From Promethearchaeota archaeon (GTDB lineage: Archaea; Asgardarchaeota; Lokiarchaeia; Sigyniarchaeales; SOKP01): 58,373 nt of DNA. Positions within the stretch are counted from its first letter, which is position 1; every line of letters starts with the position of its first letter. The translations under genes were made by a program, and so were the position numbers. Where the stretch lies: the NCBI GenBank assembly GCA_048941605.1, contig JBHLNL010000006.1, positions 1-58,373 of the forward strand, read 5' to 3'. The notes under the pieces were generated by a model, which saw nothing but the letters and a program-made list of their open reading frames with translations, searched no databases and had not been told where the DNA came from. Below, piece by piece: positions 2,791 through 49,446 of this stretch.

Positions 2791-4344
2791 CTATTTCTCA
2801 GAAACCATTTTATCTAAATCGTGTGAAATCAATTTAGTGGTATTTTTCTCATTGAATTTCAATCTGCTCTTATTTAACTCATCGTCGATTCCAGCTATTT
2901 TTTTAACCATTGTTTTTCGAGCTTCAATGTCATATTGTGTCGTAATAGCTATTTCTTCCATAACTGGGCTTCCTCCTCCATGGTAGCTTCCAAAAAGATG
3001 GATTCCTCCTGTTGCAGAACAAATCATATCACCAACATATCGCCAGAATTGTGCGGCATTTTCAGGTGATATCATCGGGTTTCTAGTAATATATTTATAT
3101 AGTTTATCCTTCAATTTAGGATTAACAAAATCTCGTTCATGCGGGAACGTTGCTGGAATACCACCACAAATATCCGTTATTATCTCAGCTTCACGAAAGA
3201 CATTTTCTCCAGTTAAACACCTTCCAACATTGCAGTAAATGGAGTTTGGAATATAACTTCCTGGCCCATAAGGAATAAAACCTACTCCAGGCATATATAC
3301 TTCTGATTTTCCCAAATCAGATGCAGTATATCCAGCAGCATAACCAAGTTCCGTAACTAAGATTAATTCTGCTAACTTATGTCTAACATGTGTTGCCTTA
3401 GCTATGTTGTTATATTCTGCAGCTAAGGCCGCTGTTCCCGTCATTATATCTCCAATTGCAGGTTTGCACCCCGAATAACTATGTCGGTGAAAAAGGCCAA
3501 ATAGTAAGGCAAGGGCACCCCCATGCTGATATTCACCGCATAAAAAGACTCTTTCCCAGGGAACGAATACATCATCAAAAATTATATATGAATCTGTGGC
3601 TCCTGGTTGAAAACCGCGTGGAAAATGTTCCCTTTTTCGAAGATTGTGAATGGTAACCACTTGAGTAACACCCTCATAATCTCCTGGTACCGCGAATGCA
3701 ACCGCATAATCTTTATCTTCTGGTCTTAATGCTCTTGTTGGGATAACTAGTAGTTCGTCAGACACTGAAGCTTCTGAAATGTGTAACTTACAGCCACTAA
3801 CTATAATTCCATCTTTCTTCTTTTCTACAACATGCACATACATATCAGGATCTGCTTGTTCAGCAGGTCTTTTAATTCGATCACCCTTTACATCAGTTTG
3901 AGCACCAGCTGAGACTAAATCTTCTTGTTGGAATCGTAATAACCATTTTTTAAAATTTTCGTGGTAATGAGATTCTCCATTATTTAATTTATCAGCTTCA
4001 TATGAAACATTATATATTGCATTCGCTGCATCGCAACCCATACATCGTTGAATACATCCACCAACTTTTTGACATAATTTACGCGTCATATCTTGCTTTT
4101 TATGAAGATCTTCAGTGCTATGATGAATGTGCGTAAATCGATTAATAATTTCACCAGTAAGATGAGATTTAACTTGGATTAAATCTTTGTATTCAGGATC
4201 ATCAAAAGCATCGAAGGTTGTTCCAATCGTATTTAAACAGTCCATCTGAAGGGCGTCTAATCTATCGATTTCCTTTCCATCATAGTATAGATTTGACTTC
4301 ATTCTGCCTAAATCTTTCATGTACTGTTCTTTTGTCCTAACCAT
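2791..4344 (-). CDS. abfD: 4-hydroxybutyryl-CoA dehydratase / vinylacetyl-CoA delta-isomerase (HpaB-fold family)
   Basis: 517 aa, colinear from memory with Clostridium AbfD. The Fe-S/active-site motifs are retained: CIQRCMG (AbfD CFQRCVG) and FHRHSYSGCK (AbfD YHRQSYGGCK). Confidence 0.8.
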   Translation of the reverse strand: MVRTKEQYMKDLGRMKSNLYYDGKEIDRLDALQMDCLNTIGTTFDAFDDPEYKDLIQVKSHLTGEIINRFTHIHHSTEDLHKKQDMTRKLCQKVGGCIQRCMGCDAANAIYNVSYEADKLNNGESHYHENFKKWLLRFQQEDLVSAGAQTDVKGDRIKRPAEQADPDMYVHVVEKKKDGIIVSGCKLHISEASVSDELLVIPTRALRPEDKDYAVAFAVPGDYEGVTQVVTIHNLRKREHFPRGFQPGATDSYIIFDDVFVPWERVFLCGEYQHGGALALLFGLFHRHSYSGCKPAIGDIMTGTAALAAEYNNIAKATHVRHKLAELILVTELGYAAGYTASDLGKSEVYMPGVGFIPYGPGSYIPNSIYCNVGRCLTGENVFREAEIITDICGGIPATFPHERDFVNPKLKDKLYKYITRNPMISPENAAQFWRYVGDMICSATGGIHLFGSYHGGGSPVMEEIAITTQYDIEARKTMVKKIAGIDDELNKSRLKFNEKNTTKLISHDLDKMVSEK

Positions 4345-12285: not shown

Positions 12286-12564
12286 ATTTATTACCGTGGT
12301 TATATTTTAATTAGATTGAAAATCATTGGAACTCAATGGAAAGTCACAGAAAAGTTAAAAGGCTTAAAATCGAGCAATTTAAATGAGGATTGGCAAATTA
12401 CATATGCCACTCCTGTATATGGTGGTTGGGATTTAATGGTAGAATGTATTTTTGACAAACTTAATGATTTAGATAAAATTGTTTCATTCTGTAGGACTGA
12501 CCCTGAACTATCTCAATGGATAGAGGCAACGACTACCCTAATTAGTACTAAAAAGAATTATTAA
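12286..12564 (+). CDS. Stand-alone Lrp/AsnC-type ligand-binding (RAM) domain protein
   Basis: The pattern YILIRLK..KVTEKLKGL....ATPVYGGWDLMVECIF..LNDLDKIV matches the beta-alpha-beta-beta-alpha-beta RAM fold (vtG.yDl...v). The first strand lies upstream of the track start (TTG 12316). ATT 12286 sits 8 nt after AGGTG (12273-12277). Confidence 0.55.
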   Translation: MYYRGYILIRLKIIGTQWKVTEKLKGLKSSNLNEDWQITYATPVYGGWDLMVECIFDKLNDLDKIVSFCRTDPELSQWIEATTTLISTKKNY

Positions 12565-23058: not shown

Positions 23059-23284
23059 TAATTTTCACAAATTTGAAATTTGTTTAATTAAAAACACTAA
23101 GTTTTAATAAAAGTTCTTTCAGAAAAAAAAAATTTTCATTAAATAATGTTATTTATTTATAAAATGTTCAGAATAACACATCTATTTTAAAAAAGAATTA
23201 TTAGAAGATCTATAAATAATATACAATGTTTAATCTTTTACCTTAATATTTATTAGGAACATTCACTATATTATTATATAAAAT

Positions 23285-42205: not shown

Positions 42206-42865
42206 TTGGTAAGAATAAACCGACTTCCTATATTTCCAGATGACTATATTGAAGATAAAGCGGAAGAATATGATAGCTCAAAATGGATGGAGCGCAATCA
42301 AAAAAGAAGCACACTAATAAGTATTGAATACCTTTTCGATGAAAGATTAAATGATATTGAGGATATAGGGACTGAAATGGGAGAATCATCATTAATTTTA
42401 GATTTAGGATGTGGAACTGGTTATTCATCAGAAGTTTTAATTCAAAATAGTTTTAGAGTAGTTGGTGTTGATATTTTAAATGATATGTTATCAAAAGCTA
42501 GAGAGAAAAAAAAAATTTCTAAAGAATTAAAAAAATTAGAATTAATCTTAGCAGATATTAACAATTTGCCAATTAGAAATAACTCAGTCGATCACATAAT
42601 CTCAATATCATCATACAACTTTATAATTCATGGCTTGGAAAATTATGGTGAGAAAGTAAAACTGTTAAATGATACTGGAAAAAATTTAAATAATATTTTA
42701 AAGAATAAGGGAAGAATTGTTATTGAGTTTTATCCTAAAGATGATAATGAATTGAAAATATTTAATAAGTCATTTATTAATAATGGGTTTGAAGGATTTG
42801 TAGTAAAGAACAAGCCAAAACAGAAATCTGGCCAAACATTTCTATTATTAAAGAAAAGAATGTAA
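42206..42865 (+). CDS. Class I SAM-dependent methyltransferase, Bud23/WBSCR22-like
   Basis: Motif I is ILDLGCGTGYSS. The N-terminal PIFPDDYIEDKAEEYDSS...RNQKRSTLISIEYL resembles the Bud23 N-terminus (PPEIFY..EA.KY...IQ). It is coupled to the next gene (TAA-tt-ATG). Confidence 0.65.
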   Translation: MVRINRLPIFPDDYIEDKAEEYDSSKWMERNQKRSTLISIEYLFDERLNDIEDIGTEMGESSLILDLGCGTGYSSEVLIQNSFRVVGVDILNDMLSKAREKKKISKELKKLELILADINNLPIRNNSVDHIISISSYNFIIHGLENYGEKVKLLNDTGKNLNNILKNKGRIVIEFYPKDDNELKIFNKSFINNGFEGFVVKNKPKQKSGQTFLLLKKRM

Positions 42866-42867
42866 TT

Positions 42868-44001
42868 ATGGGAACATGTAAATTCTGTGGCAAAACAGAT
42901 AAAGTAATCTCAGAAATTCTAGAAGTATGTAGAACATGTGTTTTAGAAGGTAACTGGGATCAAATTAAGTCTCATATATTCAATGTTCACAAACAGGTTC
43001 GTCAGCTTGTAAAACTACCAGAAAAGCCTCCAAAAGCAGAGAAGCCAAATATTAAGTTAAAATGTAATCTATGTATAAATGAATGCAGGCTTTCTGATAA
43101 TGATGTTAGTTATTGCGGTTTAAGAAATATTCAATTAAGAACTTCCGGCCAATTACCATATCCCTCAAAATCGAAAGGATATATCCATGGTTATATAGAT
43201 CCAAATCCAACTAATTGCTGTAATAGCTGGTTTTGTCCAGCTGGAACATCAGCAGGTTATCCAGAATATTCAAATTATGATGGTCCAGAATTTGGTACGT
43301 ATAGTTATGCGGCTTTCTTTTACGGATGCTCATTTTCGTGCCTCTTCTGTCAGAATAGTAGCCATAAGCTTTTTTCAAAAAGACATTTATTCGATGTTGA
43401 AACATTAGCTAATCAGATAGTTAAAAATAAGGACATTACATGTTTATGCTATTTTGGAGGAACTCCCGAGCCTCAATTACCATTTTCTATTAATTTAGCT
43501 GAGAAAATCATAGAAAAACTCAAAAACAAGAAAAGAATCATGAGGTTCTGTTGGGAATGGAATGGCTCCGGTAAACGTGAATGGATTGAAAAAGCAATGC
43601 AAATAGCTATTAATACAGGAGGAAATATCAAATTTGATTTAAAAACATTTCATGAAAAACTAAACTATGCTTTATGTGGTGTAAGTAACAAAAGAACACT
43701 GGAAAATTTTAAATTCCTTGCTGAACATTATTTTGGATCGAGAAAAAATTTACCTGAGATAAGTGCGTGTACACTGATGGTTCCTGGTTATACAAATTCT
43801 ATAGAAGTGGAGCAAATTGCTAAATTTGTTAGTTCTATTAACGATGAAATTCCATATAGTCTATTAATATTTCATGGAGATTATCAAATGCGAGATTTAG
43901 GGATTACACCACGAAAACAAGCATTAAAAAGTTTAGAAATCGCTAAAAAATATTTAAAGAGAGTAAATCTTGGAAACAAATTCTTGTTAGGATTTGCTTA
44001 A
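42868..44001 (+). CDS. Radical SAM protein (PflA/activase-like) with N-terminal Cys-rich extension
   Basis: The CxxxCxxC motif reads YGCSFSCLFCQN. Upstream Cys pairs are CKFCG..CRTC and CNLCINEC..YCG. Confidence 0.8.
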   Translation: MGTCKFCGKTDKVISEILEVCRTCVLEGNWDQIKSHIFNVHKQVRQLVKLPEKPPKAEKPNIKLKCNLCINECRLSDNDVSYCGLRNIQLRTSGQLPYPSKSKGYIHGYIDPNPTNCCNSWFCPAGTSAGYPEYSNYDGPEFGTYSYAAFFYGCSFSCLFCQNSSHKLFSKRHLFDVETLANQIVKNKDITCLCYFGGTPEPQLPFSINLAEKIIEKLKNKKRIMRFCWEWNGSGKREWIEKAMQIAINTGGNIKFDLKTFHEKLNYALCGVSNKRTLENFKFLAEHYFGSRKNLPEISACTLMVPGYTNSIEVEQIAKFVSSINDEIPYSLLIFHGDYQMRDLGITPRKQALKSLEIAKKYLKRVNLGNKFLLGFA

Positions 44002-44003
44002 TA
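43966..44003 (+). repeat. 38-bp direct repeat, copy 1 (last codons + stop of the radical SAM gene)
   Basis: AATCTTGGAAACAAATTCTTGTTAGGATTTGCTTAATA. It matches copy 2 at 45141-45178 at 37 of 38 positions. Confidence 0.85.
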
Positions 44004-44058
44004 TAACTCAGTTATTTGTTATTCAATGCTTAACAGCTTTTTCCAGATTTAAATTTCC

Positions 44059-45036
44059 TTATGGTTCTGGGTTTACACCTAAGTTCCATATCTGTTGATC
44101 TTCAAGCTCTCCGTCGGTTATGATCACTTTAATTTCAATGACATACCCATCACCAACTGGTACATAGGTATAGTTACCACCAATTTGTTGTAATACACCA
44201 CCTGCATACCAACTCACAGTTAACGGATCATTATCTGGGTCGTATATTCTAATTGTAAAGGTTGCTGTATCCCATGGATTGACAGCTGGATTAGGAATTG
44301 TAGGCCAATATTCAACAATTTCAGGTGCACGATTGATATTATTCACGGTTAAAATCCAAACCTTTTCTACCACGTTTTCGCCATCTGTAACGTTTACTTT
44401 TACTGTATGCGTACCATTAGAAAAGTAATCAGTATTATATACATAATTATCTGAGGTCCCTCCCAGATGTGAGAAGTTTAAAGCCATGTCTTCATACCAG
44501 AGATTCCATTCATAAGTAAACAAGGTATTATCAACATCTGATATGGTAATAGCAAATTCTTGAGACTGGTTTTCATTAATTACTGGATTTGATAAAGGGG
44601 AAAAATCAACAATGAAAAGAGGATCATTTATAATAGTTATATTTACAGTAAACACATCTGTAGCGGTTAGTATTCCATCTGAAACTTCAATTGTAACATA
44701 AGAAAATCCGGACCATTCAGCTAATGGAATGATATCTACTAGATTTTCGGCATCAATACTTACTCCACAATTTGGGTTTGAATTCACTAGAATGGAATAA
44801 GTAAGAGGATCTGAGTCTGGATCTGAACTATAATCGCTGAGATTAAAAGCATCTAATTGCTGAGAGTCCTCAGGGAGAGTAATATCAGGCAATCCTGAGA
44901 GTGAAGGGGGCAAATTTTCACCATCTGCTACTCCAGTTGGCTGATTAATTAAATAGAGAAATATACCACTAGTTATCCCTGAACCAGCTAAAGCTGATAT
45001 TATGATAATAGCAATAATTTTTACATTAAATTTCAC
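44059..45036 (-). CDS. Membrane-anchored surface protein with Ig-like (cadherin/PKD-like) repeats
   Basis: An N-terminal TM anchor is followed by ~3 repeats of ~90 aa. Each repeat has DxDxDPLT(Y/V)S-type motifs (DPDSDPLTYS, DVDNTLFTYEW, DPDNDPLTVSW) and V.V.DG motifs. Confidence 0.65.
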   Translation of the reverse strand: MKFNVKIIAIIIISALAGSGITSGIFLYLINQPTGVADGENLPPSLSGLPDITLPEDSQQLDAFNLSDYSSDPDSDPLTYSILVNSNPNCGVSIDAENLVDIIPLAEWSGFSYVTIEVSDGILTATDVFTVNITIINDPLFIVDFSPLSNPVINENQSQEFAITISDVDNTLFTYEWNLWYEDMALNFSHLGGTSDNYVYNTDYFSNGTHTVKVNVTDGENVVEKVWILTVNNINRAPEIVEYWPTIPNPAVNPWDTATFTIRIYDPDNDPLTVSWYAGGVLQQIGGNYTYVPVGDGYVIEIKVIITDGELEDQQIWNLGVNPEP

Positions 45037-45140
45037 AATAATGTATTATTTTTTCTCCTTAAAAAAATTATATTTTTGATTAGTGTTCTATTGTATTTCC
45101 CGATCATGCAATTTTAGGATTTTATCTGCGTTTCATAAGC

Positions 45141-45178
45141 AATCTTGGATACAAATTCTTGTTAGGATTTGCTTAATA
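45141..45178 (+). repeat. 38-bp direct repeat, copy 2 (non-coding duplicate of the radical SAM 3' end)
   Basis: AATCTTGGATACAAATTCTTGTTAGGATTTGCTTAATA. Confidence 0.85.
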
Positions 45179-45289
45179 CTTTAAGAATGCCGTTTTGAAG
45201 TTCAGATAAAAAAGTTTATTTAATAGGATTAATTAAAAATATAAGAATAGACCGTTAAAGATTAAATAGAAATTATTGGTGAGGATAAA

Positions 45290-45595
45290 ATACAAAAAGC
45301 ACGCATACGATTGTCATCCACTCAATTAGATGCTCTGCAATCAGTATGCGATCAAGTTCTTCAAGTTTGTAATAGTCAAGGTATAAGAAAAAATGGTCCT
45401 ATTCCTCTACCAACTAAAAGATTACGTGTTCCTGTAAGAAAGGCTCCTAGTGGCCAAGGTACATCAACTTGGGCAAAATTTGAGATGCGAATCCATAAAA
45501 GACTTTTTGAAATTATCGCAAATGAGCGAAGTATGCATCTCATTATGAAAATTCAGATTCCAGAATCAGTTTTGGTTGAAATTGAGTTAATGTAA
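45290..45595 (+). CDS. rps10: 30S ribosomal protein S10 (uS10, archaeal/eukaryotic S20e type)
   Basis: QKARIRLSSTQ...GPIPLPTKRLRVPVRKAPSGQGTSTWAKFEMRIHKRLFEI..ERSMHLIMKIQIPESVLVEIEL is colinear with archaeal S10 (MQKARIKL...GPIPLPTK...RIHKRLIDI). The track start (TTG 45311) cuts off QKARIR. ATA 45290 occupies the Met position, 5 nt after GGTGAGG. Confidence 0.9.
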   Translation: MQKARIRLSSTQLDALQSVCDQVLQVCNSQGIRKNGPIPLPTKRLRVPVRKAPSGQGTSTWAKFEMRIHKRLFEIIANERSMHLIMKIQIPESVLVEIELM

Positions 45596-48881: not shown

Positions 48882-48999
48882 GTTTTTAATTTTTCCCGTT
48901 TTTCCTATTACAAATTGGACATTAATGGATAAATTTATATATATGAATTTTTCCTTTTTCCTTGTAAATTAGGGTTATCGGATAATTTGAGGTGATATT

Positions 49000-49446
49000 A
49001 TCGTAAAGGACGCATTAAAATTTTTTCAGGCTTACATAAAAGAAATGATAGACATTGGGGGAAATAATTTACCAAAAGCCATATCATCTAAATCTGGAGC
49101 AAAATTAGGCAAAATATATAAAAAGCGAGGTTTAACAGGAGATATTGGGACAACCTTAAAACATTTATACACTGTTTTAAATGGTAAACCCGTGATAAAG
49201 CAACTAAATGAAAATACATATGATGTAACCTTAAAATATCCTAAGAAATTTTGTCCAATTGGAGGCTCTTTAAATCCATCTCGAGCTCCACTTTTTCAAG
49301 AAAATATCTGCATTCCATATACAAAAGGATTTCTAAATGAAATTTTTCCTCAATATACATTTGAATCAGATATTTTAAACTGTATCCCCCTTCATAATCA
49401 TAATAATTGTCATTATGTTTTAAAGATCAGAAAAAAAAAATTATAA
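49000..49446 (+). CDS. V4R-domain protein (COG1719-like, Bet3/TRAPP-related fold), paralog 1
   Basis: The Cys pattern FCPIGG...ICIPYTKGFLNEIF....LNCIP....NCHYVLKI is V4R-like. The N-terminus VKDALKFFQAYIKEM aligns with paralog 2 but lies upstream of the track ATG (49045). The only in-frame candidates are ATT 48997 and ATC 49000, after GAGGTGA. Confidence 0.55.
   Translation: MVKDALKFFQAYIKEMIDIGGNNLPKAISSKSGAKLGKIYKKRGLTGDIGTTLKHLYTVLNGKPVIKQLNENTYDVTLKYPKKFCPIGGSLNPSRAPLFQENICIPYTKGFLNEIFPQYTFESDILNCIPLHNHNNCHYVLKIRKKKL

Follow-up and report, generated by a model that had tools for sequence, protein, structure and literature searches.

A putative AUA start codon in the ribosomal protein uS10 gene of a Lokiarchaeia family

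Introduction

The window analysed here, a stretch of 58,373 nucleotides from a Promethearchaeota archaeon, carries a gene for ribosomal protein uS10 whose frame has an ATA codon where the initial methionine is expected, and the question raised by the locus is where its translation begins. The original prediction placed the start at this ATA or, failing that, at an upstream AUU. A review lists AUG, GUG and UUG as the start codons of archaea (PMC7531240). Conserved, highly expressed prokaryotic genes are normally selected for AUG, with AUU switches put at about 1/60,000 in 36 genome groups (PMC5622118), and an essential ribosomal gene fixed at AUA across several genera, as proposed below, runs contrary to this pattern. 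The lineage belongs to the archaeal group closest to eukaryotes, in which start selection is poorly known. A literature search on AUA/non-AUG starts in archaea and Asgard archaea, with most subscription journals outside its reach, found no report of such a trait.

The uS10 Gene and its Start Region

The features of the locus are as follows.

45290..45595, plus strand: rpsJ (uS10) coding sequence, 101 aa counted from the ATA, stop codon (45593-95) included
45290..45292, plus strand: ATA, putative start codon at the ortholog Met1 position, near-cognate in the family as 53 distinct ATA and 2 ATT sequences
45278..45284, plus strand: Shine-Dalgarno-like GGTGAGG, first G at -12
45263..45265, plus strand: in-frame TAA closing the frame upstream
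45311..45313, plus strand: TTG (Leu8), the first canonical start and the choice of many gene callers, giving a 94-aa truncated product
45252..45268, plus strand: putative BRE/TATA-like element, CCGTTAAA-GATTAAATA, spanning roughly -38 to -22 and clearer in relatives than here, where it is degenerate

On re-reading the sequence, all coordinates that the original prediction gave for this region hold. The ATA is preceded in frame by ATA GAA ATT ATT GGT GAG GAT AAA and followed by CAA AAA GCA CGC ATA CGA TTG, with a 5-nt spacer separating it from GGTGAGG. There is no in-frame ATG, GTG or TTG in the window sequence between the TAA at 45263-65 and the TTG at 45311. The identification of the product as S10 was confirmed by profile search (126.4 bits to TIGR01046, whose cut-off is 96.25, over profile positions 1-99 of 99), and the gene is present as one copy in a genome that is 94.8% complete. 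As had also been proposed, the ATA occupies the ortholog Met position, aligning with Met1 of solved archaeal uS10 chains, whose N-terminus is MQKARIKL.

Some NCBI records carry the full 101-aa protein beginning MQKARIRL, apparently from ATA loci (P0001/L045 and P0027/L072), while many other uS10 records are 94- or 89-aa truncations. With the alternative initiators of NCBI table 11 available, the full-length records represent homology-driven annotation and not a described biological trait.

The uS10 gene is separate from that of EF-1alpha (window 42206-45595). In many genomes of the genus it lies directly 3′ of a radical-SAM-type gene (here 42868-44001); in the window a gene of opposite orientation (44059-45036) sits between the two.

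Start Codons in Related Archaea

The closest relatives are mostly MAGs of the Promethearchaeota (Lokiarchaeia). When the start codons of these related archaea were compared, ATA was found at the uS10 start in 20/20 same-genus genomes having a match, while the 80 closest loci have ATA (45), ATG (21), TTG (7), GTG (6) or ATT (1). ATA stands at the Met1 position in the genus itself and in another five genera of its family (g1, g16, g17, which has ATT too, g22, g23 and two g14 genomes). The remaining genera of the family start uS10 with GTG, TTG or ATG, and other families mostly with ATG. The relatives in these comparisons are not independent samples. A tree of the 297-nt gene, with a backbone lacking resolution, requires nine start-codon changes in its best form, of which at least three are forced by supported branches.

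Among the uS10 orthologs, Gln2 to Ile6 are invariant as residues while their codons vary synonymously, and the CAA/CAG variation beneath an invariant Gln2 indicates that frame 0 is translated from codon 2 onwards. Taking together all readings that place the start at this codon, it is highly probable that uS10 is initiated at 45290.

A few uS10 loci differ from this pattern. Two from g13, L113 (G046:C7) and L241 (G064:C131), have TCG at the Met position with GGTGAG at -12; reading back in frame to the stop, no canonical start is met, and the sister genomes differ in having TTG and another leader. Locus L027 (G030, family f2) reads ATA ATT CAA against GTG GTA CAG in a sister genome; it is possibly an independent ATA start, although an in-frame ATG lies eight codons upstream.

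Shine-Dalgarno and TATA-like Signals

The explanation that we consider likely is near-cognate initiation of the infC/pcnB type at AUA by Met-tRNAi, anchored by a Shine-Dalgarno (SD) sequence on a leadered mRNA. From sequence comparison we infer initiation itself, the tRNA used, the presence of the SD on the mRNA and the reason for the weak codon. In this model, GGUGAG of the leadered uS10 mRNA would pair with the 16S anti-SD and so hold the AUA at the P site; there the ordinary Met-tRNAi (CAU) would take it despite the third-position mismatch, yielding Met-Gln-Lys-Ala-Arg-Ile. The uS10 AUA would then be one case of a family-wide tolerance of AUU, AUA, AUC and CUG behind strong SDs, and it would be held by selection, probably because a weak start serves to set or regulate how much uS10 is made. 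In E. coli extracts AUA does initiate when its context is optimised (PMC5499595).

GGTG is located at -12 or -11 in 51 of the 52 ATA orthologs, which is inside the register range of this genome's canonical starts, and GGTG(A/G) is found closely upstream in 54 of the 55 ATA/ATT orthologs. The GGTGA motif is complementary to the 16S 3′ tail GGAUCACCUCCU of relatives, with a computed duplex energy of -7.4 kcal/mol. The tail reads GGATCACCTCCT in relatives, with the anti-SD intact in four of them; the 16S 3′ end was looked for in the genome's own assembly and was not identified. Some genera possess GGAG or GAGGT in place of GGTGA, these being other parts of the same anti-SD complement.

Within the family an SD-like motif precedes uS10 in 1/21 loci with ATG, 16/25 with GTG or TTG and 54/55 with ATA or ATT, a contrast to be taken as a pattern and not as a test since the ATG orthologs are mostly one clade. 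It matches the compensation of weak starts by strong SDs reported for non-AUG starts (PMC5622118). SD matches of at least five bases occur in this family before about 10% of first-in-operon genes and about 30% of operon-internal genes, an enrichment indicating that these are real SDs. Such clear SD use differs from the cultured Loki genome, in which, according to the review, SDs are not prevalent (PMC7531240).

The alternative that survives best, a leaderless mRNA, is nevertheless rather improbable. It holds that transcription, driven by the conserved BRE/TATA element around -38 to -23, begins at or beside the ATA, so that the mRNA would open with AUA as in mammalian mitochondria, with GGTGA serving only a longer second transcript or acting at the DNA level. 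A TATA-like motif is indeed present at -34..-20 in 40/55 ATA/ATT orthologs against a background of 14-22%; this box, at about -32 to -23 and often with a BRE-like CCRWAAA before it, is the only conserved upstream element other than GGTGA, and genera with a GTG start have textbook BRE/TATA pairs (CCGAAAA-TTTTAAAA and CCGTAAGC-TTTAAATA). With the usual archaeal spacing from TATA to start, the transcript would begin at the ATA itself, leaving GGTGA off the mRNA. However, GGTGA is near-invariant and in SD register, the motifs replacing it in some genera retain the anti-SD complementarity, and SD motifs are enriched in operon-internal genes. Moreover, the box is degenerate in the genome under study, and other near-cognate genes have no excess of TATA at -30 (13/82). 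Both leadered and leaderless uS10 transcripts possibly exist.

Alternative Starts, Editing and Frameshifting

It is very unlikely that the true start is instead the downstream TTG at 45311 or an upstream in-frame ATT or ATA. The TTG is a canonical start that many 94-aa database entries adopt, and the window does have ATA at 45266 and ATT at 45272 and 45275 in frame. Yet of the 80 loci only 27 have this codon-8 TTG as their first canonical start downstream, the next one lying at codon 50-66 in others, and the QKARIR that it would remove is invariant and forms the beginning of the family profile. On the upstream side, an in-frame stop lies no more than two codons before the start in 33/55 ATA/ATT orthologs, so that an upstream AUU cannot be the general start, and just one of the 55 has an in-frame canonical start upstream. 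Neither the TTG nor any upstream candidate has an SD before it. The upstream AUU, the fallback in the original prediction, thus fails as a general explanation, and the downstream TTG is not conserved. AUA as the initiation codon appears well supported by its conservation, by the SD position and by the exclusion of both of these alternatives.

Of equally slight probability is that the codon is made Met by other means, either through mRNA editing (third codon position, A to I or G) or through reassignment of AUA to Met. One A-to-I conversion would be enough for AUA to be read as AUG, and the usual TiaS route for AUA was not found in the class (domain PF08489 turned up in four archaeal controls but in none of the 61 genomes searched from the class). 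Internal ATA nevertheless aligns with Ile at 52-61% of ortholog positions and with Met at 3-4%, the same as ATT, and a tRNA-Ile(UAU) gene is present; a reassigned code was rejected on the behaviour of internal ATA. Such editing would leave the ATT, ATC and CTG starts unexplained, among them the uS10 ATT in g17.

The initiator tRNA has the anticodon CAU, an A1-U72 pair and three G-C pairs, all of which are standard, so an altered anticodon is not the cause, and no altered initiator tRNA was seen. In its gene (contig C196, ~23100-23242, minus strand) an insertion of about 32 nt separates the variable region from the T arm. The tRNA-Ile(UAU) gene is split by an intron and lies on a contig of the same assembly (C165, ~3577-3760, minus strand).

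Entry from an out-of-frame GTG within GGTGA, followed by slippage of -1 along the As of CAA AAA, is even less credible. A canonical start in the +1 frame is open to this point in 44/55 orthologs, but in 8/55 all frames lack an open canonical start upstream, and in three the sole one lies in the other frame. The run of As is broken in six orthologs, which have CAG AAA; in addition, Gln2 would not be conserved under this scheme and the GTG has no SD of its own. It was rejected on the orthologs that lack the GTG or have CAG AAA.

That the ATA is an assembly or consensus error for ATG at 45290-45292, the caveat attached to the original prediction, is a negligible prospect for which no favouring evidence was found, given ATA in 53 distinct sequences from independent assemblies and a Logan contig with no differences over 45000-45319, the latter being weak support since that run may be the source sample.

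Selection on the Start Codon

Selection was considered on a tree of 39 sequences, these being genus g1 and loci of at least 90% identity, all of which have ATA. No change was found in the third base of the start codon, while 15 internal K/E/Q codons had 2-12 third-position changes (A/G, mean 6.4; Poisson P(0) 0.0017); for nine Ile codons within the gene the count was 4-12. ATG is one transition from ATA, yet this step is never taken on the tree. Codons 3, 5 and 6 (Lys3, Arg5 and Ile6) had 0, 1 and 1 changes respectively, and being near-fixed they suggest that part of the ATA conservation may reflect a general constraint on the 5′-end sequence rather than selection for a weak start.

In the window, codons 3, 5 and 6, near-fixed in their nucleotides, fall within 45293-45307. 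Ile6 is ATA in 49/52 sequences and the other Ile codons are mostly ATT or ATC; an RNA-level element right after the start is possible.

Near-cognate Starts Across the Genome

For the genome as a whole, the in-frame codons from the preceding stop up to the first canonical start were scored for an SD match of at least five bases. The excess attributable to SD enrichment was greatest for ATG (126), followed by TTG (36), ATT (30), ATA (21), GTG (14), CTG (7) and ATC (4, weak), and there was no SD enrichment before AAT, TTA, AAA, TAT or TTT in this genome. An SD before a near-cognate codon with none at the first canonical start was found for 91/2646 genes. Setting the control rate of 1.3% against 4.3% leaves an estimated 60 or so genes, a little over 2%, a figure that omits weak-SD cases. 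Near-cognate codons have an SD more often than control codons (odds ratio 3.5, p 4e-19). The signal is repeated in a sample of genome G022 (odds ratio 3.0, p 0.009), while other samples, of about 200 kb and low power, gave p 0.12 (g14), p 0.21 (g13), p 0.048 (G038) and 0/84 (G032).

Orthologs swap codons at homologous starts, the exchanges being ATT/ATG, ATA/ATG, CTG/ATG and ATT/TTG. Examples are a GPN-type GTPase (ATT vs ATG) and a short-chain dehydrogenase (ATA vs ATG), both named from their motifs. A phosphopantetheine adenylyltransferase-like gene and several others retain ATT, ATC or ATA in both genomes. Near-cognate starts thus appear to be a genome-wide trait and probably a habit of the whole family. 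The AUA of the S10 gene is no single-gene oddity but one case of a trait that aIF1 shares.

The Fidelity Factor aIF1

The gene for aIF1 is present in 44/49 genomes of the genus and 128/151 of the class. It is not in the assembly of the genome under study, where the genes next to it lie at the very beginning of contig C196, so that the absence fits a contig break. Loss of aIF1 as the cause of weak starts was rejected on its presence in 128/151 class genomes and on the likely contig edge.

In ten g1 loci, aIF1 reads as a stop, two codons, ATT AAA GAY and then the zinc knuckle, with no canonical start. Its start appears to be ATT in g1, g16 and g20, ATA in g13, f5 and f7, and TTG or ATG in f2 and f6 (loci L164-L180, L151, L153, L156 and L157-L163); in most g13 and both g14 loci an upstream in-frame GTG leaves the start ambiguous. 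Loop 1 is changed from RRYG to R(K/R)WG, with Trp for Tyr, in families f1 (that of the genome under study) and f2. The Trp was rejected as a sufficient explanation, with f5 and f7 keeping Tyr yet having non-AUG aIF1 starts.

Tentatively, aIF1 of Loki-type Asgard archaea might limit its own synthesis through its AUU or AUA start, with the fixed-AUN genes, uS10 among them, following the aIF1 level as a fidelity regulon. If true, such a regulon would couple the making of ribosomes to initiation fidelity, and archaea would gain the example of the feedback loop that they have so far lacked. No report of aIF1 autoregulation was found in the literature search, with the same restriction on subscription journals.

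Comparison with Known Systems

Near-cognate starts are known already from bacteria and mitochondria. Mycoplasma has AUU and AUA starts, and in mitochondria internal AUA is read as Met. With both, the present case shares an AT-rich genome and a relaxed recognition of the third start position. It differs from mitochondria in that internal ATA is Ile and no altered tRNAi was found. Leaderless non-AUG starts are described for mammalian mitochondria (PMC11775629).

The bacterial infC gene for IF3 has an AUU or AUC start with autoregulation (PMC5499595). Like it, the genes described here have a conserved near-cognate AUN start in core translation functions, and the counterpart aIF1 appears to start with ATT or ATA in relatives. 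Unlike it, they belong to the archaeal aIF1/aIF2 machinery, uS10 is a ribosomal protein and not a fidelity factor, and the trait spans several percent of genes. Eukaryotic eIF1 is autoregulated via a start in poor context (cited in PMC6237735). It is an orthologous fidelity factor with a weak start of its own, that weakness lying in an AUG in poor context met by scanning, in contrast to the non-AUG codon behind an SD-like motif seen here. Otherwise the apparatus resembles that of canonical archaeal initiation, with an intact anti-SD (in relatives), a standard tRNAi, aIF1 in most genomes of the genus and the usual SD register.

The main interest lies in the apparent lineage-wide relaxation of start selection and its link to aIF1, more than in uS10 alone. 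With aIF1 also at AUU or AUA, Asgard archaea offer a setting in which start-codon stringency and its feedback can be tested. A practical consequence is that gene callers confined to ATG, GTG and TTG would truncate at least 2-3% of the family's proteins, including uS10, which is a phylogenetic marker.

Further Candidate Loci

One uS10 match (G066:C135:24554-24880) is about 30 nt longer and has stops inside. Elsewhere in the window, position 12286 (plus strand) is a candidate ATT start behind GGTG, opening the frame IYYRGYILIRLK; ATT likewise stands right behind a stop in a g14 ortholog, and it recurs in a paralog located on C114. At 48997-49002 (plus strand), ATT/ATC behind GAGGTG opens IIVKDALKFF, 15-16 codons before the first ATG; the N-terminus of the neighbouring paralog, MSKNKDALKFF, supports near-cognate initiation at this position.
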